Virus record (IMG/VR): IMGVR_UViG_2554235126_000004
Reading direction: 5' to 3' (one strand)
Length of the DNA stretch: 39,628 nt
From: a virus
Taxonomy: Duplodnaviria; Heunggongvirae; Uroviricota; Caudoviricetes
Every line of letters starts with the position of its first letter. Position 1 is the stretch's first letter. Positions 1,452 through 37,126 of this stretch are shown one piece after another. The translations under genes and the position numbers were made by a program. The notes under the pieces were generated by a model. That model ran no database searches and was not told the DNA's origin. It was given only the letters and a program-made list of their open reading frames with translations.

Positions 1452-2579
1452 TCAAACCTTGATTTTTGCCCATTCCTTACCACGATCATCATGGTATTTA
1501 GCTGTCTGGTTAGGCGATTTATGTCCCAGAAGTTTTTGGGTGTCGACGCCCTGAGCTTCGTAAAGTCGCTCAGATAAAGATCTTTGTTCATGGAATGTGG
1601 CGGGCGAACCTTCACCCCAGTCAATGCCTGCTAAATCCCTCGCTTTACTGAAATTCATCGTCAATGTATTGGCTTTTACTTGCGCGCCACGTTCAGCCTG
1701 TGAAGTAGTACGAAAAAAATGTACAAGGTATGGGCTGACTGCATAGTCACGGCAGCGGGCTACTACATCGCGTAAACTCCAGTTAATTGCATTGAGGCGA
1801 AGGGAAAGCGGGATGGCGATTTTGCTCCCGGTTTTTTCTTGGATGACGTGAAGATGATCATCCCAAATATCGCTAAATTTCATACGTGAGATATCACCTA
1901 ACCGTTGGCCGGTAACCAGTGCTAACAGCATGGCATTCCCCATATAACGATGGCGTGCATCTGCGATATCAAAGATTTTTTGCCATTCTTCAAGACTTAA
2001 CCGTTGTCGGGTAATTTTTCTTCTGGGTTGTTTGGTTGCCAGTGCTGGATTATAGCCCGGAGGGACTTCCCCATAGTGTTGTGCCTCCTTGAATACATCA
2101 ATTAGAACGGAGCGGACTACTTGCGCCATCCTCGGTTGCCCGGCAGTGATATACTCGTCAAGTAATTGTGCTATATCCCTTACATCAACTGATGAAATTA
2201 ATTTCATTCCTGCTCGTTCCCTGAGCAAGGATACTGGTTTGGCTTTCTGTTTATAGGTGTTTAGCTTTATATCGCCACTTTCCAGTCTGTCATCCTGGAT
2301 TGCTTGATAGCGATCTAACCAGGTTGACGTTGTGATTGCTTTTCCTTTGCTGGTTGCGATCCTGTCACTGATAGCCAGAATCTGCCGGGTTCTTTGCTCA
2401 GCCAGGCGTGAATTTGCCTCAGTGGCAATAGCAATGGCTTCAGCTTCGTTTGTGCCTAAAGAATGAAACTTCCCGGTCACAGGATGTTTATATCGCCAAT
2501 AGACTTTATTTACTTTTCTACTATAAAGCGGATACAAGTTCGGGACTGAAACATTATTTTTACGTGGTCTGGCTGCCAT
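1452..2579 (-). CDS. int: tyrosine recombinase, phage integrase
   Basis: 375-aa ORF with integrase-like N-terminus (MAARPRKN...) and C-terminal catalytic-domain pattern; adjacent overlapping excisionase. Confidence 0.9.
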   Translation of the reverse strand: MAARPRKNNVSVPNLYPLYSRKVNKVYWRYKHPVTGKFHSLGTNEAEAIAIATEANSRLAEQRTRQILAISDRIATSKGKAITTSTWLDRYQAIQDDRLESGDIKLNTYKQKAKPVSLLRERAGMKLISSVDVRDIAQLLDEYITAGQPRMAQVVRSVLIDVFKEAQHYGEVPPGYNPALATKQPRRKITRQRLSLEEWQKIFDIADARHRYMGNAMLLALVTGQRLGDISRMKFSDIWDDHLHVIQEKTGSKIAIPLSLRLNAINWSLRDVVARCRDYAVSPYLVHFFRTTSQAERGAQVKANTLTMNFSKARDLAGIDWGEGSPATFHEQRSLSERLYEAQGVDTQKLLGHKSPNQTAKYHDDRGKEWAKIKV

Positions 2580-2848: not shown

Positions 2849-3397
2849 TTAATTTCGCTGTCTGGATTGTTTATGCATCTTATGCAGCTCTTTAAAGCGT
2901 TCCATAAACATCCCGTAGGCATGGCCCGGTGCCAGTGGAATCACGTTGAACATCTCTGTTGCCGGGATGCCTTCCAGTACAGGCCAGAAAGAGCCATCAT
3001 CAAGCCCGAGATCGCGGCGTTCGGTTGCCAGCATGATGAGATCGGCATATTTCACGGGCGTACTCATAACCGGGGGTAACCCGTATTTCTCACGGATTAC
3101 GGCGTCTATTTTTTCTTCCATCTGTTTATAGTCAGGAAGAAGGCGTTTCAGTGGAGCGGGGATGTCCTGGCAATACGCTTCTGTTGCATCATGCATTAAC
3201 GCTTCAAAAGCAAATTCCTGCGGTACCAGTTGGCTGCAAAGAACCGCATGTTGGGCGACGCTGTAGAAGTGTGAAAGATGTCCTGCAAAGCGACAGATAT
3301 TTGAAAGGGAAACCGCGATATCGTTAATAACGATGTCGTCTTTATTTATCCTGTCATAATAAAAATGCTTCCCAGAAAAAGTTTTAATAAATGACAT
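2849..3397 (-). CDS. HD-domain phosphohydrolase (YfdR-like 5'-deoxynucleotidase)
   Basis: Contains H..HD motif (LMHDATEAY); start placed at ATG 3397 preceded by GGAG with 6-nt spacer (ORF track extends to 3460). Confidence 0.7.
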   Translation of the reverse strand: MSFIKTFSGKHFYYDRINKDDIVINDIAVSLSNICRFAGHLSHFYSVAQHAVLCSQLVPQEFAFEALMHDATEAYCQDIPAPLKRLLPDYKQMEEKIDAVIREKYGLPPVMSTPVKYADLIMLATERRDLGLDDGSFWPVLEGIPATEMFNVIPLAPGHAYGMFMERFKELHKMHKQSRQRN

Positions 3398-3525
3398 TTT
3401 GTTCTCCACGTTATTTGCGCTGCACCGCACTGAATTCTGGTAAAAGGAAGCCCTCACCATCCGGAGATTATTGAGTTAATTACGTTTCCATAAATGCCCC
3501 CGCAGGGGCATTTGCAGTAATCAAA

Positions 3526-4350
3526 TCAGGCGGTGAAAGTACCAATAAAGGTTTCTACTTTGCTGTCTTTGAATTTCTCAACAAGCAGATCGCGAAATTC
3601 GTTAGCCATTTCTTCCTGCACCGCCTCCAGCTGAATAATGCGCAGAACAAGTACAGGACGATCGCCAGTGATAATGCTGAGGCGTAATTTAAAAGAACGT
3701 TCTTTCAGACCTTCAAACGGAACGCATTTAAATTCAAATGCCACTGGCATAATGTCTTTGGTCTTCGCTTCGACAGACTCCATCAGGGAGCGTTTGCCGC
3801 TGAAGTCATTATCTTCAAAATCAGCGGTCTGGTTTGCTTCAATCGTGATTTTACGGACAGCCGCAGCCGCTTTTGTTGCCTGGATAGCGTCACCATTAGC
3901 ATCAAAACCCACAAGGTAGTCGGCCCAGTCTTCAATCCATTCTGCCAGTGACTTCTGGGAGTTACGCTCGCTGTTAACAGACAACAGTGCAGAGAACGGT
4001 GCTGTCTTTTTCAGTTTGAGAGTGGCGGTGTTATCTGCGTGACCTGGTTCATCAATAGTACCCAGGTTAAGCACACTGACGGCACGCATATTATCAGCAT
4101 CGATAAAGCAGCGGGTGCCTTCATCTGCAAGATCTTTAGAATAACGGGTAAAGTCATCGATGCTGGCAGTGGAAAGCGCACCACGGAAACGGAAGCGATT
4201 TAAATTAAATTTTTCCAGATCATGAATGCGGAAATTCTCAGGCAATGCTACAGCATCGGCACCAATCTTACTGATAATTTCATTAACACCCTGAGCAGAA
4301 ATAATAGCATGGATTTGATTAATTGCGGTTGCGTCTAAGTTCTGAGACAT
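3526..4350 (-). CDS. YfdQ-like phage protein (DUF2303-type)
   Basis: 274-aa ORF, GAGGA RBS 7 nt upstream; resembles CPS-53 YfdQ family as recalled. Confidence 0.65.
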
Positions 4351-4415
4351 AATAAGTCCTCACTATATAAAGATATTCAGTGATGAGATAAATAATCAGT
4401 TAATTAAGAACGATA

Positions 4416-4778
4416 TTAATGACCTGCTGCGCGGAGTTTTCCGTCAGGTTCACCGGCAAGAGTCAGTAATTGTCCCTGGTCTTCCTGCAGAATAGTCAGG
4501 CGACCACCGCGATTGACATACATCGGCGTTTCGGTGGTGTCTTCTTCAGAAATTTTCCCGCGGTTAGTCGGGCGAACATATGAGAGTTTGTGTTTGATTT
4601 TCACTCGGTTCTCATCAAATGGTTCGATTTCCAGGTTGAGTGAGACCTTACCTTTGGTTTTCGTGTTCATCACACCGGAAGCGACTTCACTGAGAACTGC
4701 GCCGATTTTGGTTTCAAATACGCCGCCGTCCAGCTCCCCGATAAATGCCTGCACATCAGTACTGCGTTCGCTAGCCAT
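4416..4778 (-). CDS. YfdP-like small phage protein
   Basis: Start placed at ATG 4778 (MASERSTDV...) with GAGGAG RBS; upstream in-frame extension to 5096 is Arg/Cys-rich and non-protein-like. Confidence 0.55.
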   Translation of the reverse strand: MASERSTDVQAFIGELDGGVFETKIGAVLSEVASGVMNTKTKGKVSLNLEIEPFDENRVKIKHKLSYVRPTNRGKISEEDTTETPMYVNRGGRLTILQEDQGQLLTLAGEPDGKLRAAGH

Positions 4779-5180
4779 TTTGCTGCTCCTCATCATATCG
4801 ACCCTGCAAGGCCGATTAGTTTCTCCACAAAACAGAGAAGAACACCTGCGGTGGCAGCCGCCCGGATGGATTGAGTTATGAGCCCGTCGTCCGGTGATGC
4901 TCTTCTCTGTTTTGTAAAAAGGACGGTACCAGCCGGAAGCAAGGGTACAAGCTGGTACCGCCAAGACTACACACAGCATAAAGTTGTGGTGCCGGGTGCC
5001 TCCCGGTGCCTGGCGAAGGTTGCACACCAGGCGGGTGGGTATCCACAGAAGGTCGACTGTCAGCCTCAACCTTAACCCGCGTGCGCTGAGCAGCATTCAC
5101 CACAACGCTAAGGATTCTCTCTGGTTGAAAATACTTAGCTGTTATGTGCCTGCTTTTAGCCACATCAGGCGAGGTGGACC
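4779..5180. other. GC-rich structured non-coding region with nested inverted repeats (candidate structured RNA)
   Basis: About 400 bp without plausible ORF; 15-bp perfect inverted repeat ACAAAACAGAGAAGA / TCTTCTCTGTTTTGT (about 4828-4916) enclosing further GC-rich stems; 9-bp stem GGTACCAGC/GCTGGTACC at 4925-4959. Confidence 0.3.
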
Positions 5181-5232
5181 TGGTTATTCCCCAACAACAA
5201 GGATTCGGTTAATCTGGTTATCCCCAACAACG
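5181..5232 (+). repeat. direct repeat CTGGTTAT(T)CCCCAACAAC x2 immediately upstream of the 144-aa gene
   Basis: Copies at 5181-5200 and 5214-5232, second ends 15 bp before ATG 5247; possible regulator binding sites. Confidence 0.4.
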
Positions 5233-5246
5233 CAAAAGGAAAAGAA

Positions 5247-5681
5247 ATGTCCGGTAATATCTACACGTTGTACAAATCCCACTGTGAAAATGTTGGAAAG
5301 TATCGGGGCATTGAAATCAGTGGGGTAGTGTCATCAGTCGAAATAAGCAAAGTGGAATCAAGGGCAACATTACTTACTCTTCTGGATCTTGTCTTACATG
5401 AGCACCGGAAGAAATTCGGCACTCCCTATAATCAGTTGAATGGGAAAAAGGCTCTGGTTCACCTTATTCTGATGAAGCATCACTGGATGCCAAAACAGAT
5501 TAATGAGATGAAATTTGATGAACTTCTTCTTTCAATTCAGGATGAACTCACACTTGATAAAATAAGCGTAACCGCCCAGAAATTTTTAGATTATCGAGAC
5601 TGGAGATCACAAATTCATCACTTTGATGATTTTGACGAAAATGAATGGGATCCTAATTTGTCTGCACAATATCTAAAGTAA
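5247..5681 (+). CDS. hypothetical protein (AT-rich cargo gene, opposite strand to early-left operon)
   Basis: 144-aa ORF with AAAGGAAAAG upstream of ATG; AT-rich codon usage unlike flanking genes; 3' end overlaps convergent 68-aa gene by 29 bp. Confidence 0.5.
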   Translation: MSGNIYTLYKSHCENVGKYRGIEISGVVSSVEISKVESRATLLTLLDLVLHEHRKKFGTPYNQLNGKKALVHLILMKHHWMPKQINEMKFDELLLSIQDELTLDKISVTAQKFLDYRDWRSQIHHFDDFDENEWDPNLSAQYLK

Positions 5682-5859
5682 CATCCTGTGATAAAACCGT
5701 GATTTCCTGATCCAGTTTTTTTAAGGAGTCTATTGTTTCCTGTCGATAAGACAGCACTTCACGAAGCTGGTTTATAGCTGCCAGCTTCTTTGCCATCCAC
5801 TCGTAAATTTCCTCATTTGTGTATCCGGGCGCGACGATTTTGGGTTCTGTTTTGTGCAT
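5653..5859 (-). CDS. hypothetical small protein, first gene downstream of pL-like promoter
   Basis: Start placed at ATG 5859 (MHKTEPK...) with GAGGAGG RBS 7 nt upstream; 68 aa. Confidence 0.5.
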   Translation of the reverse strand: MHKTEPKIVAPGYTNEEIYEWMAKKLAAINQLREVLSYRQETIDSLKKLDQEITVLSQDVTLDIVQTN

Positions 5860-5901
5860 TTCACACCTCCTCAAGTTATCAGTTACTTGTTGATGGGGAC
5901 C

Positions 5902-5937
5902 AGATTGTTAAAGAGCTAAGCGTCCTGTAGGGCGCTT
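5902..5937 (-). promoter_or_regulatory. rrn-type boxA-like element (GCTCTTTAACAAT) with adjacent hairpin in the pL leader
   Basis: Minus-strand sequence AAGCGCCCTACAGGACGCTT (hairpin) followed by GCTCTTTAACAAT, matching the rrn/nut boxA consensus as recalled; on plus strand the same hairpin plus T-run could act as terminator for the 144-aa gene. Confidence 0.35.
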
Positions 5938-6026
5938 TTTTGTTGCTAACGAATCATCCTGGACTTCATATGCCCCAGGCGGCTACTTCGTGGGCGTCCT
6001 GCCTGTTTGTTGTTTCTCTTAGGTAC

Positions 6027-6054
6027 ATTATGTATCTCAAGGGTACATTGTCAA
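6027..6054 (-). promoter_or_regulatory. pL-like early-left promoter (TTGACA-N16-CATAAT) overlapping operator half-sites
   Basis: Read on minus strand: TTGACA at 6054-6049, 16-nt spacer, CATAAT at 6032-6027; GGTACAT/TGTAT operator-like repeats overlap. Confidence 0.5.
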
Positions 6055-6056
6055 GT

Positions 6057-6080
6057 ATAAAAAAACCTGCCGAAGCAGGT
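6057..6080 (-). terminator. rho-independent terminator downstream of cI
   Basis: Minus strand: stem ACCTGC/GCAGGT with 4-nt loop followed by U7 run, 14 nt after cI stop. Confidence 0.55.
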
Positions 6081-6093
6081 TCATAAACATTGA

Positions 6094-6768
6094 TTAGGCT
6101 TTGATTTTGTATCTTCTTGGTTTTCCTGAGAAAATCACAGTTCCAATTATAGAGCAATTACCGTTGATCTTAATGTAAGGCTCAGGCCAGTTTGGGTTTA
6201 ACGCTTTGAGATAACGCTGTGTCCCATCTTCTATCAACCTTTTGAAGGTGGTTTCACCTGTATCGTGCATCAATGCAATAACGTCGTCACCGTGGCAGGC
6301 AGGTACTTCAGGATCGACAAAAATCATGTCTCCCGGGCGGTACTCATCAATCATTGAATCACCTATCACCCGCAAGATATAAGTCATTTCCCCACAGGGT
6401 ACAGGGCAGGGATACGTTTCTGCTGTGCTCAAATCAACCTCAGAATATCCAACTTCTTTCCATGCTCCGGCCTGTACCCATGATATGACAGGGACTAATG
6501 TGATTTGTTTATTAGTGATTGAAACATCAGGTTTTTTTGTGATGTTCGTTGTCTGGTGTTCTTGATCGAGCCATCCGACAGGCAGGTCGAAACATTTTTC
6601 GATGTGTCGTGCCATGTTGTCACCGATATTTTTAGTAGCACCATCTCCCATAAACCTGCTGGTCTGGGTTGGCTCGCGATCAATCATAGTGGCAAAGGAA
6701 GAATTCCCGCCAACACCATCTCTCAGTTTTCTGGCGTTAGACCGCCGGATGTCATGGATTGTTTTCAT
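6094..6768 (-). CDS. CI-type prophage repressor (HTH plus S24 LexA-like peptidase domain)
   Basis: 224 aa; N-terminal HTH, C-terminal GDSM...K autocleavage-type motif; divergent from cro with operators between. Confidence 0.9.
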   Translation of the reverse strand: MKTIHDIRRSNARKLRDGVGGNSSFATMIDREPTQTSRFMGDGATKNIGDNMARHIEKCFDLPVGWLDQEHQTTNITKKPDVSITNKQITLVPVISWVQAGAWKEVGYSEVDLSTAETYPCPVPCGEMTYILRVIGDSMIDEYRPGDMIFVDPEVPACHGDDVIALMHDTGETTFKRLIEDGTQRYLKALNPNWPEPYIKINGNCSIIGTVIFSGKPRRYKIKA

Positions 6769-6783
6769 AACGAAATTAAAACC

Positions 6784-6853
6784 CTTGTACCGTTAAGGTA
6801 CAAGTATCTTGAAGGTTCATTTCAATCATGTAATATGTACACCGGAGGTACAT
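6784..6853. promoter_or_regulatory. immunity operator region (OR-like) between cI and cro
   Basis: Perfect 21-bp palindrome CTTGTACCGTTAAGGTACAAG (6784-6804) and ATGTAC-N7-GTACAT (6835-6853); same GTAC half-site recurs at the pL side (6020-6050). Confidence 0.6.
6809..6836 (+). promoter_or_regulatory. pR-like promoter for cro (TTGAAG-N16-TAATAT)
   Basis: -35 at 6809-6814, -10 at 6831-6836, 22 bp upstream of cro ATG; overlaps operator. Confidence 0.5.
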
Positions 6854-6858
6854 ATTGT

Positions 6859-7059
6859 ATGAAAGCGTATTGGGACTCTTTAACCAAAGAACAGCAGGGC
6901 GAGTTGGCCGGAAAAGTTGGCTCAACACCTGGCTACTTACGGCTGGTTTTCAATGGCTATAAAAAAGCCAGTTTTGTGCTGGCTAAAAAACTTGAGCAAT
7001 GCACGTCAGGTGCAATTACGAAATCTGACTTAAGACCGGATATCTATCCGAAAGATTAG
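6859..7059 (+). CDS. Cro-like small HTH regulator
   Basis: 66-aa ORF divergent from cI; GGAGG RBS; ORF track entry 6556..7059 is an upstream extension overlapping cI on the opposite strand. Confidence 0.75.
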   Translation: MKAYWDSLTKEQQGELAGKVGSTPGYLRLVFNGYKKASFVLAKKLEQCTSGAITKSDLRPDIYPKD

Positions 7060-7090
7060 CAGAACACTTTCAATTTTTAACCACAGAACG

Positions 7091-7660
7091 ATGAGGCTAA
7101 TCGTGGGTAAGCATCACTGGAAAGTAGAAAAACAGCCTGAGTGGTACGTGAAAGCTGTCAGAAAAACTATCGCGGCGTTGCCGGGTGGTTACGCTGAAGC
7201 GGCTGACTGGCTCGATGTAACAGAAAACGCTTTATTCAACCGCCTTCGTGCAGATGGCGATCAGATTTTCCCGCTGGGATGGGCAATGGTTTTACAGCGT
7301 GCTGGTGGCACTCACTTCATTGCTGATGCTGTGGCGCAGTCTGCAAATGGCGTCTTTGTGTCTCTTCCTGACGTCGAGGATGTGGACAACGCCGATATTA
7401 ACCAGCGTCTGCTGGAAGTCATTGAACAGATCGGCAGTTATTCAAAACAGATTCGTTCAGCAATCGAAGACGGTGTAGTGGAACCGCATGAGAAGACAGC
7501 AATTAACGACGAGCTGTATCTCTCAATTTCGAAGCTGCAGGAGCATGCAGCACTTGTCTACAAAATTTTTTGCATTTCAGAAAGTAATGACGCCCGCGAG
7601 TGTGCAGCTCCGGGCGTCGTGGCGTCGATTGCTTCTGGTTGTGGAGAAACTAACGCATGA
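7091..7660 (+). CDS. CII-like / YdaT-like regulatory protein (start may be GTG at 7103)
   Basis: Position immediately after cro as in Rac ydaS-ydaT; GAGG precedes GTG 7103. Confidence 0.45.
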
Positions 7661-7995
7661 ACAGTTTAACAACACACTACCGTCGCTCGCAACTGATTGC
7701 GCTTCCTGTACCGGGTGGAAAAGCGAAGGTGGAATATTGCTATGCAGTGAATGTACCAGGTGACAGGGAAATTGTAACCCACAGCTTTGCAGAGTGGGCT
7801 GTGGGTGATTTCAACCGGCAGAAGGAGACAGTCCTTTGCGACAAGTTAACCGCTGGTTCAAAGATCACTACGGAGTGCCCGTCAGAGTCATTCGTTGGGA
7901 GCCGGAAACACAACGGGTTATCTACCTCCGCGAAGGTTATGAGCATGAATGCTTCAGTCCGCTCGAACAGTTTCGTCGTAAATTCAGGGAAATAG
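7657..7995 (+). CDS. hypothetical protein (uncertain; see alternative small ORF 7836..8015)
   Basis: ATGA overlap with upstream stop suggests coupling, but product is not very protein-like. Confidence 0.3.
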
Positions 7996-8004
7996 AGGTC
8001 GGTT

Positions 8005-8946
8005 ATGAGCACTAAATTAACCGGTTATGTATGGGATGGTTGCGCTGCATCAGGCATGAAGTTATCCAGCGTGGCAATTATGGCCCGCCTGGCTGATTTC
8101 AGTAATGACGAAGGTGTGTGCTGGCCATCAATTGAAACCATTGCCCGTCAAATTGGCGCGGGGATGAGTACCGTCAGAACGGCTATCGCACGGCTGGAAG
8201 CAGAAGGCTGGTTAACGCGTAAGGCGCGTCGCCAGGGTAACCGCAATGCGTCGAATGTTTATCAGCTTAACGTTGCGAAGCTTCAGGCAGCGGCATTTTC
8301 TCAACTGTCAGATTCTGACCCGTCAAAATCTGACGCATCAAAATCTGACCCGTCAAAATTTGATGCGTCGAAATCTGGCAAAAAAGCGGGTTTTCACCCG
8401 TCAGAATCTGGCGGGGATCCGTCAGTAAAATCAAAACATGATCCGTCAGATAAAAAACCTTCTCGTCCGGACGCTTCGCAACCGGACACGCAGACGGATG
8501 AACAGGATTTTTTAACTCGCCATCCTGATGCGGTTGTATTCAGCCCTAAAAAGCGCCAGTGGGGGACGAAGGATGATTTGACCTGCGCACAGTGGCTCTG
8601 GAAAAAAATCATCGCCCTGTACGAGCAGGCTGCCGAATGTGACGGCGAGGTGGTTCGTCCCAAAGAACCGAACTGGACAGCCTGGGCAAACGAAATTCGC
8701 CTGATGTGTGTACAGGATGGGCGTACTCACAAACAAATCTGCGAGATGTACAGCCGCGTCAGCCGCGATCCGTTCTGGTGCCGTAACGTGCTCAGCCCGT
8801 CGAAGCTGCGGGAAAAATGGGATGAGCTTTCCCTGCGCTTATCGCCGTCCGTCAGCACGTACACCGAAAAACGCGAGGACCCGTACTTCAAAGCCAGTTA
8901 CGACAACGTGGACTACAGCCAGATCCCGACAGGATTCAGAGGGTGA
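8005..8946 (+). CDS. replication initiation protein (O-like; N-terminal winged-helix domain, repeat-rich linker, C-terminal domain)
   Basis: 313 aa; N-terminus resembles phage replication-protein HTH domains; central SDPSKSDASKSDPSKFDASKS repeat encoded by iteron-like DNA repeats. Confidence 0.75.
   Translation: MSTKLTGYVWDGCAASGMKLSSVAIMARLADFSNDEGVCWPSIETIARQIGAGMSTVRTAIARLEAEGWLTRKARRQGNRNASNVYQLNVAKLQAAAFSQLSDSDPSKSDASKSDPSKFDASKSGKKAGFHPSESGGDPSVKSKHDPSDKKPSRPDASQPDTQTDEQDFLTRHPDAVVFSPKKRQWGTKDDLTCAQWLWKKIIALYEQAAECDGEVVRPKEPNWTAWANEIRLMCVQDGRTHKQICEMYSRVSRDPFWCRNVLSPSKLREKWDELSLRLSPSVSTYTEKREDPYFKASYDNVDYSQIPTGFRG
8310..8470 (+). repeat. iteron-like tandem repeats (TCTGACCCGTCAAAA-type, CCGTCA core) inside replication gene; candidate origin
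   Basis: At least four adjacent about 15-bp units at 8313-8372 plus further CCGTCAG copies to about 8450, followed by an A-rich stretch; analogous to ori-lambda within O. Confidence 0.55.
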
Positions 8947-8948
8947 TC

Positions 8949-9437
8949 ATGAGTCTGTTAAATGACGTTCAGAAATTCATTGAAGCCCATCCGGGGTGTA
9001 CTTCCGGAGACATTGCGGATGCTTTTGCAGGTTACTCACGGCAGCGCGTTCTGCAGTCTGCAAGCAAGTTACGTCAGAGTGGGCGTGTGGCTCACCGTTG
9101 TGAAGGAGATACACGCAGACATTTCCCGCGCCTGACTGAGAGAGCGCAGGAACCGGAACCACAACCAGTTCGAGAAACCAGACCTGTGCGCAATTTCTAT
9201 GTCGGCACTAACGATCCACGGGTGATTTTGTGCCTGACCCGCCAGGCTGAAGAACTGGAGTCCAGGGGCTTATACCGTCGTGCTGCAACCGTGTGGATGG
9301 CGGCATTCCGTGAAAGCCACTCCCAGCCAGAACGAAACAATTTTCTGGCGCGTCGTGAGCTGTGTTTACGGAAAAGCAGCAAGCGCGCTGTATCGAGTGA
9401 TGAGTGGTATCTGTCAGGGAATTACGTGGGGGCGTAA
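8949..9437 (+). CDS. putative regulator (PerC-like C-terminal region, recalled resemblance)
   Basis: 162 aa; AGAGGG RBS 5 nt upstream of ATG 8949; motif LESRGLYRRAATVW. Confidence 0.45.
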   Translation: MSLLNDVQKFIEAHPGCTSGDIADAFAGYSRQRVLQSASKLRQSGRVAHRCEGDTRRHFPRLTERAQEPEPQPVRETRPVRNFYVGTNDPRVILCLTRQAEELESRGLYRRAATVWMAAFRESHSQPERNNFLARRELCLRKSSKRAVSSDEWYLSGNYVGA

Positions 9438-9763: not shown

Positions 9764-10149
9764 AGCTGATCCTGCCTTTTCCGCCCAGCGTGAACACGTA
9801 CTGGCGACACCCCAACAAAGGGGCGTTTGCTGGTAAGAGCCTGATAAGCGCGGCGGGGCGAAAATTCCAGAGCGCAGCGTGCGCAGCAATAGTTGAGCAG
9901 TTACGTCGTCTGCCGAAACCAACGTCGGCACCTGCTTCAGTGGAGATCGTGTTGTTTCCTCCGGATAACCGGATCCGCGATCTGGACAACTATAACAAGG
10001 CGCTGTTTGACGCCCTGACCCACGCGGGTGTGTGGGAAGACGACAGCCAAGTGAAAAGAATGTTGGTGGAGTGGGGACCGGTTATCCCGGAAGGGAAGGT
10101 CGAGATCACTATCAGTAAGTACGAGAAACCGGCGGGTGCAGCCGCCTGA
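9760..10149 (+). CDS. rusA: RusA Holliday-junction resolvase
   Basis: 129 aa; PPSVNTYWRH...RDLDNYNKALFDALT...W.DD.QV matches RusA family pattern. Confidence 0.9.
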   Translation: MKLILPFPPSVNTYWRHPNKGAFAGKSLISAAGRKFQSAACAAIVEQLRRLPKPTSAPASVEIVLFPPDNRIRDLDNYNKALFDALTHAGVWEDDSQVKRMLVEWGPVIPEGKVEITISKYEKPAGAAA

Positions 10150-10168
10150 TTAAGAGGAGAAAGGAAGT

Positions 10169-10966
10169 ATGAATAATCTGATGGTAATTGATGGTATTGA
10201 AGTTCGTCGTGATGCTTATGGGCGTTACAGCCTGAACGATCTGCACAGGGCTGCCGGTTCTCTGGATAAGCATAAGCCTGCATTCTGGCTCCGCAATGAG
10301 CAAACTGAACGTTTAATAAGCGAGTTACAGATTTGCAACTCAGTCAATATAGAGCCAGTTAACGTTATTCGTGGCGGAAATAACCAGGGGACGTATGTCT
10401 GCAAAGAACTGGTGTATGCCTATGCAATGTGGATCAGCCCGTCATTCCATCTGAAGGTGATCCGTACTTTCGATATGGTAACCAGCGCACCGGAAAAATT
10501 ATCCGGACAGGCTGCTGACAAGATGCAGGCTGGTGTGATTCTGCTGGACTTTATGCGCCGGGAATTAAACCTGTCTAACTCTTCAGTGCTTGGTGCCTGT
10601 CAGAAACTCCAGGAGGCTGTTGGCTTACCGAATCTGGCACCGCGCTATGCCATTGATGCTCCTGCTGACGCGCCTGATGGCTCAAGCCGCCCCACGCTGT
10701 CACTGAGTGCACTGCTGAAGCAGTATGGTATCCGCCTGACAGCTAATCAGGCATATCACCAGATGGTGACGCTGGGGATCGTCGAGCAGCGCGAACGATA
10801 CAGCCGTACCGCGATTAACAACATCAAAAAATTCTGGTCGCTGACAGCGAAAGGCTGCATGTTCGGCAAGAATATCACCAGTCCCGCAAATCCGCGCGAG
10901 ACGCAGCCGCATTTCTTCGAATCCCGATTCCCTGAGCTGTTAAAGCTGCTCGATACCGTTCATTGA
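10169..10966 (+). CDS. KilA-N domain antirepressor-like protein
   Basis: 265 aa; N-terminal KilA-N-like region followed by antirepressor-like C-terminal region; GAGGAGAAAGGAAG RBS. Confidence 0.75.
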   Translation: MNNLMVIDGIEVRRDAYGRYSLNDLHRAAGSLDKHKPAFWLRNEQTERLISELQICNSVNIEPVNVIRGGNNQGTYVCKELVYAYAMWISPSFHLKVIRTFDMVTSAPEKLSGQAADKMQAGVILLDFMRRELNLSNSSVLGACQKLQEAVGLPNLAPRYAIDAPADAPDGSSRPTLSLSALLKQYGIRLTANQAYHQMVTLGIVEQRERYSRTAINNIKKFWSLTAKGCMFGKNITSPANPRETQPHFFESRFPELLKLLDTVH

Positions 10967-10967
10967 G

Positions 10968-11963
10968 GTGACCGTGAGAGCACTACTGACTCCTGAAATT
11001 GCCCCGCGTATGGGGATCGTATTGTTCAGGCCAGGTTCAGAGCTGATGCCCCTGTTTATGCAGGGGCGTGTCCTGCTGGAGCCTGAGCCGGAATGTTATT
11101 CATCTTTCGCCAGTGGTGCCGTTCCGGCGGCATCACAACCGCTGGTGGATGATCCTGCCGTTCGGGCCGTGTTCCGCAATGAGGCAGTGATCCGTCGTGC
11201 TGGTGGCGTGGAATGTCTTGAAAGCTGGTTACTTCGTGAAAAGGGCTGTCAGTGGCCTCATTCCGACTGGCACAGCGAGAACATTACCACAATGCGACAC
11301 GCTCCGGGCGCAATCCGTCTGTGCTGGCACTGTGATAACCAGCTGCGCGATCAGTTCACGGAACGGCTGGAATCAATGGCAACGGATAACTGTGCCCGCT
11401 GGGTGTTGTCTGTTGTGCGTCGGGATCTCGGTTTTGATTATAGTCACGTTGTGACAATGCCGGAACTGTGCTGGTGGCTGATTCGTAATGACCTGGCGGA
11501 TGCCTTACCGGAAAGTGCAGCCCGTAAGGCACTGAGATTACCGAAGCCTGTTGTGCCGTCTGTCACCCGGGAAAGTGACCTTGTGCCTTCGGTTCCTGCC
11601 ACCAGCATCATCCAGGATAAGGCGAAAAAGATGCTGGCGCTGAAAGTGGATCCGGAGTCGCCGGAGTCTTTTATGTTACGCCCAAAACGTCGCCGCTGGG
11701 TTAATGAAAAGTACACGCGCTGGGTTAAGACGCAGCCGTGCGCATGTTGTGGAAAACCTGCTGATGATCCCCACCACCTGATAGGCCACGGTCAGGGGGG
11801 AATGGGTACAAAAGCGCATGACCTCTTTGTGTTGCCTTTGTGCAGAAAGCATCACGACGAGCTGCATGCGGATACCGTGGCATTTGAAGAGAAGTATGGC
11901 TCCCAGCTGGAGCTGATATTTCGTTTTATCGATCGTGCGCTGGAAATAGGCGTGCTGGCCTGA
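10968..11963 (+). CDS. DUF968-like protein with C-terminal Cys/His HNH-like motif
   Basis: 331 aa; C-terminus CACCGKPADDPHHL...HDLFVLPLCRKHHDELH; start codon uncertain (GTG at 10968 or 10974). Confidence 0.55.
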   Translation: MTVRALLTPEIAPRMGIVLFRPGSELMPLFMQGRVLLEPEPECYSSFASGAVPAASQPLVDDPAVRAVFRNEAVIRRAGGVECLESWLLREKGCQWPHSDWHSENITTMRHAPGAIRLCWHCDNQLRDQFTERLESMATDNCARWVLSVVRRDLGFDYSHVVTMPELCWWLIRNDLADALPESAARKALRLPKPVVPSVTRESDLVPSVPATSIIQDKAKKMLALKVDPESPESFMLRPKRRRWVNEKYTRWVKTQPCACCGKPADDPHHLIGHGQGGMGTKAHDLFVLPLCRKHHDELHADTVAFEEKYGSQLELIFRFIDRALEIGVLA

Positions 11964-11980
11964 TTTTGTGGAGAAATTTG

Positions 11981-12346
11981 ATGCGTGATATTCAGATCAT
12001 CCTTGAACGTTGGGGGGCATGGGCAGCTAGTGATAGCTCAGGAGTGGACTATTCGCCTATAGCTGCTGGGTTTAAGGGACTTCTTCCCTATACCAGTAAG
12101 GCACGCCAAGCTTGTTCAGATAATGATGCGCTAATTATTGAAAGTTGCTTGGAGCAACTAAAAAAAAGAAAACCTTATGAGCATTCTTTACTGGTTGCGC
12201 ATTATTTGTACGGGTTTTCAAAGCGGAAGATTGCCAAAATACAAGGAAAGGATGAGAAATTAATCCGTATAGAAATATTGTTAGCAGAGGGATTCATTGA
12301 TGGTTGCCTTTCTACTCTCGATATTCATTTAGATATGGAGTTATAA
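11981..12346 (+). CDS. late-gene antiterminator Q (QuuD / phage 82-type family)
   Basis: Start placed at ATG 11981 (MRDIQIILERWGAWAA...) with GGAG RBS; strong pattern match to the Phage_antitermQ family as recalled. Confidence 0.8.
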   Translation: MRDIQIILERWGAWAASDSSGVDYSPIAAGFKGLLPYTSKARQACSDNDALIIESCLEQLKKRKPYEHSLLVAHYLYGFSKRKIAKIQGKDEKLIRIEILLAEGFIDGCLSTLDIHLDMEL

Positions 12347-12356
12347 TAAAAAATAA

Positions 12357-12381
12357 CCCCGTAAACTTTATGTTTACGGGG
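12357..12381 (-). terminator. rho-independent terminator of the TIR-like gene (also downstream of Q)
   Basis: 10-bp perfect stem CCCCGTAAAC/GTTTACGGGG with 5-nt loop; on minus strand followed by UUAUUUUUUA. Confidence 0.6.
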
Positions 12382-12386
12382 GAAGG

Positions 12387-13202
12387 TTATTTCTTTTTTT
12401 TATTACTTTCAGATAATCGTTGGTTTAATGTGTATTTTATTTGGTTCCTAATCATTTTTTCAGGAATGTCATATTTGTCTAAGAATGATATTATTTCATC
12501 CTCGTCAAGCAATCCATTCTTTATAATTTCATCTATCTGTTTTTGTAGATACCAAACATCCTTCTGTTCTACAGGAGTTAAATTCATATGGCTATTTATG
12601 GAGTTGATAGTAGCATCACGTTCAAGAACTCTAATCCTTTGATTTAATGAACGAGTGTTTTGTAATATTTCAGATAAAAGATCTTGTTCAGTACGTGGTT
12701 TTACTTCTTCAGTTGGAGGGTATTGATCTAAAGCTCGTTTAAAATTGTTTTCAAATTGCTCCCAGTATGTATTAAAAACTTGCTTTAGAATACGGTCATC
12801 TAAAGATTTATCGACAAGACAATTGTTTATTGTCCTTACTAATTCCCAAACACTCTCTTTATTTGGCGTTGTGTGATTGAATTGAGCAAGTGGATCTTTT
12901 AAATCTTCTGGTTTTAAGTCAATCAAGAATGTACAAACTTTATTTGTTGAAAGTCCTTTTGCTAGTGCTCCTGTTTCAAACAAAATCCATGGTTTATTTT
13001 TATTTTCTTGTGTCAAACATACAATGCCGACAGATACATCTTTTAATTTATCATTAATTTCAGAGAACCATATAGCGCCACGATCAATATCTCTGGTTGA
13101 AATCCATGGCTGCGAAGCTTGGATAACACACTTCAGCCAGTCGCTAATAAGTTCTGCAACAGCTTGACTTCTTTGCCCAGACCAACTTATGAACACTTTC
13201 AT
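12387..13202 (-). CDS. TIR-like domain protein with uncharacterised helical C-terminal domain (candidate anti-phage defence effector)
   Basis: Start placed at ATG 13202 (MKVFISWSG...) with GGAG RBS; N-terminal pattern KVFISWS ... GIVCLTQEN ... PWILFETG (Trp/Glu motif) typical of bacterial TIR / TIR-like domains; AT-rich; opposite strand to flanking late genes. Confidence 0.6.
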   Translation of the reverse strand: MKVFISWSGQRSQAVAELISDWLKCVIQASQPWISTRDIDRGAIWFSEINDKLKDVSVGIVCLTQENKNKPWILFETGALAKGLSTNKVCTFLIDLKPEDLKDPLAQFNHTTPNKESVWELVRTINNCLVDKSLDDRILKQVFNTYWEQFENNFKRALDQYPPTEEVKPRTEQDLLSEILQNTRSLNQRIRVLERDATINSINSHMNLTPVEQKDVWYLQKQIDEIIKNGLLDEDEIISFLDKYDIPEKMIRNQIKYTLNQRLSESNKKKK

Positions 13203-13325
13203 TATGTACTCCATGTAATCACTCAAAAGGAACTGAAATTTACATTAAAAATTAAATAAAATCACTCACGCGGTCCGCAGAAACCATTGTAATCTGTTAT
13301 GAGTGGTTACTTCGCCACACAACTT

Positions 13326-13357
13326 AAACCCGCCGTCGAGCGGGTTTTGTCGTTTCT
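13326..13357 (+). terminator. rho-independent terminator in late-operon leader (tR'-like), downstream of presumed late promoter
   Basis: Stem AAACCCGC/GCGGGTTT with 6-nt loop followed by TGTCGTTTC; lies between Q region and holin as in lambdoid pR'-tR' arrangement. Confidence 0.5.
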
Positions 13358-19643: not shown

Positions 19644-20060
19644 ATGGCGGTAGATATTAAAGATGTCGAACAGGTCGCGCAGGAGCTGCAGCAGAAGTTT
19701 GACGACTTCAAAGCAAAGAACGACAAGCGCGTGGATGCGATTGAGCAGGAAAAAGGCAAACTTGCCGGGCAGGTGGAAACCCTGAACGGGAAACTCAGCG
19801 AGCTGGAAAACCTCAAAAGCGATCTTGAAAAAGAGCTGCTTGAGCTGAAACGTCCGGCAGGTGGTGCGCAAAATAAACTGGCCACCGAGCATAAAGAAGC
19901 GTTTGTGGGCTTCCTGCGTAAAGGCCGTGAAGATGGTCTGCGCGATCTGGAGCGTAAGGCATTGCAGGTGGGCACCGATGAAGACGGTGGCTATGCCGTG
20001 CCGGAAGCGCTGGATCGCAACATTCTCACCCTGCTGAAAGATGAAGTGGTGATGCGCTAG
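19644..20060 (+). CDS. major capsid protein, N-terminal scaffold (delta-like) domain; ends at in-frame TAG
   Basis: 138-aa coiled-coil-rich product; TAG at 20058-20060 is in the same frame as the downstream capsid ORF. Confidence 0.7.
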   Translation: MAVDIKDVEQVAQELQQKFDDFKAKNDKRVDAIEQEKGKLAGQVETLNGKLSELENLKSDLEKELLELKRPAGGAQNKLATEHKEAFVGFLRKGREDGLRDLERKALQVGTDEDGGYAVPEALDRNILTLLKDEVVMR

Positions 20061-20069
20061 GAAGCCACG

Positions 20070-20849
20070 GTGATCACCGTTGGCGGTTCCGACTACAAAA
20101 AACTGGTGAATCTGGGCGGCACGGCTTCCGGATGGGTGGGGGAAACGGATACGCGATCCCAGACTGCCACCTCCAAACTGGAGCTGATTGAACCTCTCAT
20201 GGGGGAAATCTACGGCAACCCGCAGGCCACCCAGAAAATGCTGGACGATGCCTTCTTCAACGTGGAGGCCTGGATCAACAGCGAGCTGGCAACCGAATTT
20301 GCCGAACAGGAAGAAATTGCCTTTACCTCAGGCGATGGCACCAAGAAGCCGAAAGGGTTCCTGGCGTATGAATCCACTGATGAAACCGATAAGGTCCGGG
20401 CGTTCGGCAAACTTCAGCATATTGTATCCGGCGAAGCGACTGCGGTGACCGCAGACGCCATTATCAAACTTATTTACACACTGCGTAAGGCACACCGCAC
20501 CGGTGCGAAGTTCATGATGAACAACAACAGCCTGTTTGCCATCCGTCTGCTGAAAGACAGCGAGGGTAACTATCTGTGGCGTCCGGGGCTGGAGCTGGGG
20601 CAGCCGTCCTCTCTGGCGGGTTACGGTATCGCTGAAAACGAACAGATGCCGGATATCGCCGCTGATGCGAAAGCCATTGCATTTGGTAACTTCAAACGGG
20701 GTTACACCATCGTTGACCGTATCGGCACCCGCATTCTGCGTGACCCGTACACCAATAAACCGTTTGTCGGTTTTTATACCACCAAACGCACCGGCGGCAT
20801 GCTGGTCGATTCGCAGGCCATCAAACTGCTGAAGATTGCAGTGGCGTAA
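20070..20849 (+). CDS. major capsid protein, HK97-fold body (GTG start; in frame with upstream ORF across TAG)
   Basis: 259 aa; same frame as 19644..20060 separated by TAG-GAA-GCC-ACG; AGGAAG lies 5 nt upstream of GTG 20070. Confidence 0.75.
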   Translation: MITVGGSDYKKLVNLGGTASGWVGETDTRSQTATSKLELIEPLMGEIYGNPQATQKMLDDAFFNVEAWINSELATEFAEQEEIAFTSGDGTKKPKGFLAYESTDETDKVRAFGKLQHIVSGEATAVTADAIIKLIYTLRKAHRTGAKFMMNNNSLFAIRLLKDSEGNYLWRPGLELGQPSSLAGYGIAENEQMPDIAADAKAIAFGNFKRGYTIVDRIGTRILRDPYTNKPFVGFYTTKRTGGMLVDSQAIKLLKIAVA

Positions 20850-35236: not shown

Positions 35237-37126
35237 TTAATCGTATTTTGGCCATACTTTCAATGCAATTTCCCCCAACTTTTTACCTCGCTCCAGTATT
35301 TCACTCTCATCCCATTTATCCTTAAGTATAAGTGGTATGTTCAGTCGTAGATTGGTGTGGACGATGAGAGCATCACGTTTTTTCAGAAATACAGCATTCT
35401 GAACGGAACGGTTTACGCTAAGGTTAAGCAAAGTTAGATTTCCCAACGTAGCTATCGCTTGTTGCCGTTTCCTTACCAGTAGCTGTTCAGGGGTAAGATC
35501 GGTTCCAGACAGAACAATTTGGTTCATTACCGTAGCATCTGAATTTGTCACCATATGACCATTTTCGAGAGGCCAACAGGAATACCAACTTTGAGGCATA
35601 AGATGATCGATATCGAGATTAGAAAGATTTGGAACATCAGGCTTTTCTGTCTTCACTTGGCGACAAAGTTCTCTTTCAAGTTCCGTTAACATTGAGCGCA
35701 TTTTCGGTGCGTCGAGCCTGCCAGGATAAAGTGGAGCATTGATGCAAGCGTTGAGAAATTCTGAGTCCCCAGGCCAACGTGAGGCTTCGCCATTTAAGCT
35801 ATTGAGGATATTACGTAACTCAACACTGGAAATTTCCGTTTTAGACAAGTGTCGCAATACATTCATAAATACATTGTTGTAATTCTTTGGCGTCAGGCCA
35901 CATACGGATCTTCGTACTACGTAGGAGACAAGATCATTATACATGGCTGCTTTCTCATCATCGGCGATGTTAGCTATCGAAATGAACAAAGCAAGCGGAT
36001 AGAGTGTCGTCACATCATAGGCTGCGATGCGATGTCCAAAGTGTGAGATGGGGGTTGTGCCAAAACCACCAACCAATTCTTTATATTGTGATGCATATTG
36101 TTTGAGGCGCTTTACTTGCAGATCTGCTCGTTGTGAAGGCAAGTCCTTACTTACATAATCACGATACTCATTGTAAAGGCGAGACAGATCAATTTCACGC
36201 TGCCTTTCTGATTGCAATGTCGCATGTACAAGCCACTCCATGCGTGGTTTATTAATACGTCCACGGCGTTGCTTTTCCGACCAGTATTTATCTTCAAAGA
36301 TCTTCCACTCATTTTCATATAATTCAATAGCATTAATATTTTCATGCTCAGCGCACATAAAGATATAGTTGCGAATAAGATCCGTTGCATGAAGTTCCGC
36401 TCCTCGCCCATTTAATGTTTCAAAAATTATTTGGGCATCATCTTCAGCTTCGAGAAATATGCTTACCAGTTTCAGATCCGTCAAGACAGCCTCAATTAGT
36501 GCTACAGCATTTTCTTGTGGTGAGTGGTTTTCTATTTTAATCCATTTTATAAAGGCTTCAGTAAAAAACCATAATGCCTCTAGTGACGGCGGGTGGTTGA
36601 AATGTTTACGTAACGTACCATGTTGCGTGAAGCTATCAGAAAATACATTACGGAGATCGTCAATATTATCAACATTAAGACTTTGAATAAAATGAGTTTG
36701 ATCTCGAAAAGTTGGCCACAGTTTGAAGCATTCTACCTTTTTATTTCTCATCGTTGCTTCGTTTGTATTTTTCAAGCAAGTCAATACTAACCCTTCCAGT
36801 TCAGAAAGGCCTGTAGCACGCAATGATAATCGAATGGATGCCAGAATATATTGAAGAGTGGTTAAACGTTGCTGGCCGTCAATAATATGTATGGTATCTA
36901 CACCTAACAAGCTGTTTTTGAGTTGAGGTTCCAGCACCACCGCGCCGAGGAAATGAGGGGTTGGTTTTGTTCCCGAAAGTCGGCTCTGTGCTTTTTCGAA
37001 GATATCCTCCAGCAAAGCTGACCATTGGTTTCGTTGCGTCCATACGTAGGCACGTTGATAGAATGGAACACGATATTGTCGTTGATTTTGGAAAATTTGC
37101 TGGATGGTTAGCGTTTCGGATTTCAT
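35237..37126 (-). CDS. GmrSD-family type IV restriction endonuclease-like protein (DUF262 N-terminal, DUF1524 His-Me finger C-terminal)
   Basis: 629 aa; N-terminal FYQRAYVW and IIDGQQRLTTL (DGQQR) motifs; C-terminal ...DIDHLMPQSW...GNLTLLNLSVNRS; AT-rich. Confidence 0.8.
   Translation of the reverse strand: MKSETLTIQQIFQNQRQYRVPFYQRAYVWTQRNQWSALLEDIFEKAQSRLSGTKPTPHFLGAVVLEPQLKNSLLGVDTIHIIDGQQRLTTLQYILASIRLSLRATGLSELEGLVLTCLKNTNEATMRNKKVECFKLWPTFRDQTHFIQSLNVDNIDDLRNVFSDSFTQHGTLRKHFNHPPSLEALWFFTEAFIKWIKIENHSPQENAVALIEAVLTDLKLVSIFLEAEDDAQIIFETLNGRGAELHATDLIRNYIFMCAEHENINAIELYENEWKIFEDKYWSEKQRRGRINKPRMEWLVHATLQSERQREIDLSRLYNEYRDYVSKDLPSQRADLQVKRLKQYASQYKELVGGFGTTPISHFGHRIAAYDVTTLYPLALFISIANIADDEKAAMYNDLVSYVVRRSVCGLTPKNYNNVFMNVLRHLSKTEISSVELRNILNSLNGEASRWPGDSEFLNACINAPLYPGRLDAPKMRSMLTELERELCRQVKTEKPDVPNLSNLDIDHLMPQSWYSCWPLENGHMVTNSDATVMNQIVLSGTDLTPEQLLVRKRQQAIATLGNLTLLNLSVNRSVQNAVFLKKRDALIVHTNLRLNIPLILKDKWDESEILERGKKLGEIALKVWPKYD

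Follow-up and report, generated by a model that had tools for sequence, protein, structure and literature searches.

A stand-alone TIR gene carried as cargo between antiterminator Q and the late promoter of a lambdoid Escherichia coli prophage: a candidate single-gene anti-phage defence

What does a solitary TIR gene do when it lies, on the opposite strand, between the antiterminator gene Q and the holin gene of a lambdoid prophage? TIR proteins hold a central place in the immunity of bacteria, plants and animals alike and, to our knowledge, the way in which they sense infection when they have neither a large sensor domain nor a partner is still poorly understood. The case considered here is a 271-amino-acid TIR protein encoded in IMGVR_UViG_2554235126_000004, a virus record of 39,628 nucleotides that was analysed at its full length and is called the window below. 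Our results describe a gene that travels as foreign cargo, whose product joins a strongly constrained core to a fast-diverging tail, and which we regard as a stand-alone variant of a known defence TIR. Prophage TIR defence proteins, single-gene TIR abortive systems, a validated homologue of the same TIR module, the RefSeq annotation as a TIR protein and a PHROG family were all on record before. The literature searched, coverage of which was incomplete, yielded no description of the stand-alone form, of the frozen core of TIR domain and helices with its short hypervariable tail, of its wide distribution or of the interval from Q to the late promoter as a site of cargo.

The TIR core and its hypervariable tail

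The open reading frame (ORF) is 279 codons long when read from a TTG (12387..13226, minus strand) and is the only one between Q and the holin gene. Its 271-residue form, read from an ATG (Table 1), has exactly the bounds of the RefSeq coding sequence WP_000862379.1, a 'TIR domain-containing protein'. Residues 3-97 match Pfam TIR_2 (PF13676) at 31.1 bits against a gathering cut-off of 28 (E = 3.7e-7), the PADLOC profile PDLC03016 ('TIR-TM') is matched over positions 1-248 of its 293 (E = 1.7e-57, 193.6 bits), and PHROG 13899, a family of unknown function, matches end to end (E = 3e-100). NCBIfam offered no model for the protein, and a sequence search of the PDB returned only a weak match to a plant TIR (E = 0.7). 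The profile name 'TIR-TM' was also considered as a sign of a C-terminal membrane helix and that reading was discarded, as 150 family representatives contain none and the name refers to the transmembrane (TM) partners of a TIR protein from phage AC1, discussed below. Neither a signal peptide nor a transmembrane segment was seen.

The structure was modelled with AlphaFold using 126 family representatives at 37-70% identity, giving a predicted local distance difference test score (pLDDT) of 92.1 and a predicted template-modelling score (pTM) of 0.73; a first model, made with 35 close homologues, was dropped (pLDDT 65.7, with the catalytic loop below 50). The N-terminal part has the flavodoxin-like alpha/beta fold of the TIR superfamily, with strands betaA-betaE and helices alphaA-alphaE in place. 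Beyond residue 130 the model is all-helical and no Pfam family matches: two long helices (136-160 and 172-205, at pLDDT 90-98) lead into a three-helix bundle at 213-270. The second of them (DILSEILNNTRSLSHRIRDLE) shows a heptad-like spacing of hydrophobic residues and is possibly a coiled coil, to judge from that spacing. When the model was compared with the PDB by Foldseek, the top matches were NADase TIRs, namely SPARTA TIR-APAZ (E = 8e-7), plant TIRs, the SpbK filament, SARM1 and AbTir. BFVD held no full-length structural relative (best TM-score 0.32).

The motifs that had singled out this gene in the initial annotation lie at residues 2-8 (KVFISWS), 59-67 (GIVCLTQEN) and 71-78 (PWILFETG), and residues 71-80 (PWILFETGAL) form the most conserved block of the protein. 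All 126 representatives share W7, S12, G42, N67, W72, E76, G78, P104 and N126. Glu76 (codon 12975-12977, minus strand) stands at the head of helix alphaC and Trp72 precedes it by four residues, which is the W-x3-E spacing of NADase TIRs, and the pair aligns with the SSWCLDE catalytic stretch of the plant TIR found in the PDB search (E = 0.7). A true TIR domain with an intact W-x3-E NAD-glycohydrolase motif is well supported by these data, while the activity itself is predicted from the motif. The TIR-like N-terminus (TIR_2 above its gathering score, a model that matches NADase TIRs), the Trp/Glu motif of catalytic type and the unrecognised helical C-terminal domain, all of which had been proposed from the letters of the DNA, are thereby borne out.

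Mean pairwise identity falls steeply along the protein, from 88% among close relatives and 55% among representatives at residues 1-125, through 68% and 31% at residues 126-195, to 27% and 11% at residues 196-271. The proportions of non-synonymous (pN) and synonymous (pS) differences were compared between the E. coli, Klebsiella, mEp390, Vibrio and Shewanella genes. Here pN was 0.02-0.16 at residues 1-125 and 0.31-0.59 at residues 196-271, the tail thus changing about ten times faster than the core at non-synonymous sites, and synonymous sites were saturated (pS 0.7-0.9). Because pS is saturated, the high identity of the core reflects strong purifying selection over a long divergence and not recent transfer. 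The pattern agrees with a core constrained by enzymatic function or assembly and a specificity module, attached to it, that diverges fast; the very strong constraint on the entire TIR surface is in keeping with an enzyme that has to form several defined TIR-TIR interfaces. Iterated profile searches started from the tail reach only the closest 10 of the 126 tails. Two further approaches to the tail were set aside: a dN/dS comparison of tail and core is unusable with synonymous sites saturated, and a shared motif, G-x-S-x2-E-I, present in 19 of the 126 tails against 6.6 +/- 2.4 in shuffles, is weak, was recognised post hoc and is not relied on.

A variable cargo slot next to Q

Homology to phages with the same type of Q ends at about 12341 and restarts in a 95-nucleotide conserved segment (13254-13348), which delimits an insert at about 12347-13253. 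The initial annotation had drawn it from 12347 to 13300; the left edge stands and the right edge moves inward to about 13253. Its description of a 271-residue protein on the opposite strand between Q and a region resembling pR'/tR' agrees with the ORF, the RefSeq coding sequence, the Q profile and the segment homology alike. We infer from its position that the conserved segment, which ends in a terminator-like hairpin (13326-13347, plus strand), is pR'/tR'.

The insert is as AT-rich as had been claimed, with a GC fraction of 0.305-0.35 over 12200-13200 against 0.50-0.58 in both flanks. It brings its own terminator, described at first sight as strong: on the minus strand (12381-12357) a stem of 10 bp, 6 of them GC pairs, with a 5-nucleotide loop is followed by TTATTTTTT, and the folding energy of -16.6 kcal/mol (z = -3.8) was reached by none of 200 shuffled sequences. 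In phages cdtI and PhiR40_1 the same interval is filled by unrelated reverse-strand genes and, since related phages hold different reverse-strand cargo there, the site between Q and the late promoter is a variable cargo slot. Foreign composition, a terminator of its own and an occupancy that varies among related phages together show the TIR gene to be foreign DNA in that slot, and we take it to be lysogenic-conversion cargo, that is, a moron.

The arrangement of Q, TIR gene and holin recurs elsewhere. When a phage collection was searched by tblastn with the TIR protein, two phages only were found, mEp390 and AC1, the latter with 38% identity over residues 1-179. The first of these, an isolated lambdoid phage, carries a 59%-identical copy (gene 047) on the minus strand in the same order between Q and holin, with an annotated bidirectional terminator at the equivalent site. 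The order is also found in Klebsiella prophages whose lysis and head modules differ. Other late-promoter morons of lambdoid phages, such as stx downstream of Q and pR' and the cargo of cdtI and PhiR40_1, are likewise variably present genes of foreign composition in the interval from Q to the lysis genes. The TIR insert, in contrast to stx, lies upstream of the late-promoter segment and is transcribed convergently to Q, and so falls outside Q-dependent late transcription.

Only 51 nucleotides separate the TIR ATG from the conserved late-promoter segment, a distance at which either transcription unit may disturb the other. The sole promoter-like site near the presumed late promoter, CTGAAA-18-TAAAAT (9/12; 13233-13262, plus strand), overlaps the 5' leader of the TIR gene. 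As to the alternative occupants of the slot, cdtI (L009, 2968-4356) holds orf53 (147 aa) and orf54 (313 aa, DUF6731), and PhiR40_1 (L008, 3032-3478) holds a gene for a 148-aa protein. PADLOC gave no match to these genes and Pfam gave DUF6731 only; they may be uncharacterised defence candidates.

Table 1. Features of the TIR gene, its product and its flanks, in positions of the window
Feature	Position	Strand	Basis or remark
TIR protein coding sequence, 271 aa (MKVFISWS...)	12387..13202	-	Stop 12387-12389, ATG 13200-13202; ORF, RefSeq bounds and Pfam/PADLOC/PHROG
TIR domain, residues 1-130	12813..13202	-	Strands betaA-betaE, helices alphaA-alphaE
Conserved helical extension, residues 131-195	12618..12812	-	Two long helices in the model; representative matches reach about residue 195
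Hypervariable C-terminal tail, residues 196-271	12390..12617	-	Predicted small three-helix bundle; candidate sensor or specificity module
Shine-Dalgarno sequence GGAG	13209..13212	-	6 nt 5' of the ATG; direct sequence reading
Intrinsic terminator of the TIR gene	12347..12381	-	Stem-loop 12357-12381 and T-tract, within the 40 nt that separate the stop codons of the convergent Q and TIR genes
Antiterminator Q gene, left border of the slot	11966..12346 (RefSeq start 11978)	+	PF06530 Phage_antitermQ, E = 1.3e-48; RefSeq 'antiterminator Q family protein'
Conserved segment resembling a late promoter and terminator, right border of the slot	13254..13348	+	84-93% identity to the segment after other cargo genes in phages cdtI and PhiR40_1
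Holin, then lysozyme and Rz	from 13500		Downstream of the terminator-like hairpin

Spread of the family, proposed function and rival explanations

A word-indexed search returned 2084 relatives, and an exhaustive search of representatives at 50% identity gave 11260 matches at E <= 1e-3, of which 3365 lay at E <= 1e-30; nearly all of the representative matches cover residues 1 to about 195 only. In a collection with one genome per species at least 559 loci have a relative. The loci listed come from Proteobacteria, Bacteroidota, Bacillota, Planctomycetota, Verrucomicrobiota, Acidobacteriota and one Methanoperedens archaeon, by which the family crosses the boundary between bacteria and archaea. 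The homologue in this Candidatus Methanoperedens sp. (L090, 6001-7380) is a longer ORF of about 459 aa, by a crude ORF call, with 46% identity to residues 1-167. The E. coli allele is rare, being found in 25 of 5426 complete genomes, with all copies at least 99% identical.

The surroundings of the homologues are often mobile or of defence type, and they hold no constant companion: among 133 immediate neighbours at 74 loci there are 121 different Pfam families, none seen more than four times. Those that recur are other TIR_2 proteins (4), ThsB-like TIRs (3), ribonucleotide reductase domains (3, in Haemophilus), SLATT two-transmembrane (2TM) effectors, AAA_21, PIN and integrases. In the chromosome-2 superintegron of V. 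cholerae (L003, CP053803.1) the gene forms two identical single-gene cassettes (7828-9104 and 9929-11206), each bounded by VCR/attC repeats 1117 nucleotides apart. Such cassettes, together with the lack of a conserved neighbour at the 74 loci, indicate that the gene travels, and presumably works, alone. In three Haemophilus spp. (L023, L025 and L060, at about 3640-7940) the homologue stands between nrdA and nrdB on the same strand, 15-17 nucleotides after nrdA and with nrdB directly downstream; it looks like a defence-type gene inside an essential operon. SLATT/DUF4231 2TM effector genes adjoin the homologue at L012, L013, L031 and L056, an arrangement that recalls the TIR and TM genes of AC1; at L031, L038 and L056 ThsB-like TIRs lie beside it, and L012 has a further canonical TIR_2 protein.

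The TIR protein of the P2-like phage AC1 is the closest validated relative, with 38% identity over residues 1-180 (BLASTP, E = 2e-42). It scores 393 bits on PDLC03016, the same PADLOC profile, and its neighbours match PDLC02977 ('1TM-TIR', one-transmembrane) and PDLC02978 ('2TM-TIR'). Rousset et al. (2022, PMC9122126) showed that, together with these two transmembrane proteins, it confers protection from lambda, LF82_P8 and P2. What the two TIR proteins have in common is the homologous N-terminal 180 residues, comprising the TIR domain and the first conserved helix, and carriage as prophage cargo in a variable hotspot; their C-terminal 90-135 residues, however, are unrelated, the AC1 hotspot belongs to a P2-like phage and not to the Q/late-promoter slot of a lambdoid one, and the two membrane-protein genes upstream of the AC1 TIR are absent here and from 80 related loci. 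The search for the partners covered the window, the loci of E. coli, Klebsiella, Vibrio and Shewanella and 80 more. Neither the window nor L001-L091 contains a tblastn homologue of the 1TM protein (best E about 9), and for the 2TM protein there was none in the window or the related loci, the best match (E = 0.43) spanning 22 residues. We conclude that the protein is homologous to a component of the AC1 system, but that the locus does not itself belong to the system. A standalone or novel-effector TIR had been suggested at the outset; the stand-alone form holds, and the validated AC1 homologue gives the protein a precedent.

A PADLOC scan of the 48 ORFs in the window found no ThsA, STING, SAVED, NLR or other plausible partner, as the initial annotation had remarked. 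Thoeris ThsB is likewise a defence-associated bacterial TIR with a catalytic Glu, but the SIR2, SLOG or Macro effector ThsA that goes with it is missing here, and the ThsB profiles are not significant (Pfam ThsB_TIR, E = 0.062 on the wrong region; PADLOC ThsB, E = 0.018). SPARTA TIR-APAZ, TIR-SAVED, TIR-STING and PycTIR, which give the best Foldseek matches to the TIR domain, are all NAD+-depleting effectors activated by oligomerization; each has a defined ligand- or Argonaute-binding domain and a partner enzyme, whereas the protein described here has a short hypervariable helical tail and no partner. Closer in organization is SpbK of the Bacillus subtilis element ICEBs1, a single-gene TIR NADase abortive-infection system whose non-TIR domain binds the dodecameric phage portal YonE and clusters the TIR domains, leading to activation (PMC12847820). 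Here too a lone TIR gene sits on a mobile element without a conserved partner. At the sequence level, nevertheless, homology between the two proteins is not detectable (they are 17% identical when aligned by structure), and their domain order is reversed, the TIR domain being C-terminal in SpbK and N-terminal here.

The function that we favour, with moderate confidence, is that of a self-contained anti-phage moron, a stand-alone abortive-infection NADase for which the tail would act as the sensor. In this scheme the lysogen would make the TIR protein, which would stay inactive until another phage infects; the hypervariable tail of 75 residues would then bind a component of that phage, probably a multimeric one, and the conserved helical or coiled-coil extension would, with the TIR surfaces, drive clustering of the TIR domains. 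Clustering would open the active site, Glu76 would cleave NAD+ to nicotinamide and ADP-ribose or cyclic ADP-ribose (ADPR), and the depletion of NAD+ would abort the infection before progeny are released, a working mode akin to that of SpbK with the domain order reversed. A more specific version, which we put forward tentatively and with rather more doubt than conviction, is that of a minimal self-sufficient TIR immune receptor, in which an ultra-conserved NADase core of 195 residues (TIR plus coiled coil) would carry a tail of about 75 residues that directly recognizes phage proteins.

Several points weigh against the proposed abortive-infection NADase. We infer its activity, its trigger and the abortive outcome alike, and in the literature searched, coverage of which was incomplete, no experiment was found with this protein or with relatives that occur as single genes. 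The AC1 TIR, which is the one validated relative, acts together with two membrane proteins, and the proposal made for it is that it signals to them, as a signal generator and not a killer (PMC9122126). Upstream of the ATG, the minus strand showed no convincing sigma-70 promoter from which the gene could be read. The role of the tail as a sensor is suggested by its variability; positive selection on it is not demonstrable with dS saturated, and it could instead be a poorly constrained linker or an oligomerization element.

The proposal made for AC1 leads directly to the main rival explanation. A signal generator of the Thoeris or AC1 type would sense infection and turn NAD+ into a cyclic or modified ADPR messenger, for an effector encoded elsewhere, on the host chromosome or on another mobile element. 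The suggestion that the AC1 TIR signals to its 2TM and 1TM partners (PMC9122126) speaks for it, as do the few related loci with adjacent SLATT 2TM effectors or ThsB-like TIRs, and TIR chemistry is not deducible from sequence. We nevertheless consider a signal generator unlikely in view of the missing conserved neighbour, the single-gene integron cassettes and the absence of an effector-like gene from the window. Moreover, a receptor to match would seldom be at hand for cargo that moves alone among Enterobacteria, Vibrio, Shewanella and Haemophilus.

Carriage by phages, the viable mEp390 among them, and a position beside the late operon that could permit read-through expression might suggest that the gene benefits its own phage, as a counter-defence that destroys or mimics host TIR-derived signals, poisons host TIR assemblies or remodels NAD metabolism in lytic growth. 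This we judge improbable, since the gene stands on the strand opposite to the late operon with a terminator of its own and is retained in a prophage with a broken capsid gene, since most family members reside outside phages (in integron cassettes, in chromosomal islands and between nrdA and nrdB), and since the nearest characterized homologue is a defence gene. A host-directed virulence factor of the Tcp class (like TcpC or BtpA), interfering with Toll-like receptor signalling in animals, is hardly credible for a family that spans environmental bacteria of many phyla and an archaeon, has an invariant catalytic Glu and no visible signal peptide or transmembrane segment, and occurs in only 25 of the 5426 complete E. 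coli genomes. Equally hard to credit is a non-TIR enzyme, either like the nucleoside 2-deoxyribosyltransferases, an alternative raised at the outset, or another flavodoxin-fold hydrolase acting on nucleotides and not on NAD+: the sequence profiles match TIR families only, the W-x3-E spacing and its alignment with the plant catalytic Glu are those of NADase TIRs, and the best Foldseek matches are NADase TIRs without exception.

Were the minimal-receptor version of our proposal true, the family would rank among the most widespread single-gene TIR defence families, with at least 559 bacterial species, besides one archaeon, among the reference genomes, and 3365 clusters at 50% identity and E <= 1e-30. 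DefenseFinder calls the three-gene AC1 system Rst_2TM_1TM_TIR. Current defence finders are expected to miss the stand-alone TIR, on the assumption that their calls require the 2TM and 1TM partners. The family is a very small natural test case, a single gene whose product joins a frozen catalytic core to a short tail that can be swapped. Integron cassettes and the isolated phage mEp390 carry it, as does a tractable E. coli prophage. Should phage specificity reside in the tail, the rules of recognition could be mapped by tail swaps, and a role could then be given to thousands of orphan TIR genes that we expect to be unannotated as defence. The interval from Q to the late promoter of these lambdoid phages is at the same time marked as a cargo slot with other possible defence candidates.

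Other genes of the prophage

The window has the layout of a lambdoid E. coli prophage, with an integrase gene (1452-2579, minus strand), an early region, RusA, KilA-N, DUF968, Q, holin, lysozyme, Rz, HNH, terminase, and head and tail genes. The major capsid gene (19644-20849, plus strand) has an in-frame stop at codon 139 (20058-20060), and the same pseudogene is flagged by RefSeq in NZ_CP145630. With this stop the prophage is probably defective, and the TIR ORF is intact despite it. An ORF on the early left side (2849-3460, minus strand; 203 aa) shows a weak match to YfbR-like 5'-deoxynucleotidases of the HD-domain type (E = 1.9e-5; 24.9 bits, slightly short of the 25.9-bit gathering score). 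Near the right end of the prophage, after the tail-fibre genes (35237-37126, minus strand), a second defence gene is carried as cargo; it encodes a 629-aa type IV, modification-dependent restriction enzyme of the GmrSD family, matched by PADLOC mREase_IV at 1523 bits and by Pfam GmrSD_N and GmrSD_C.

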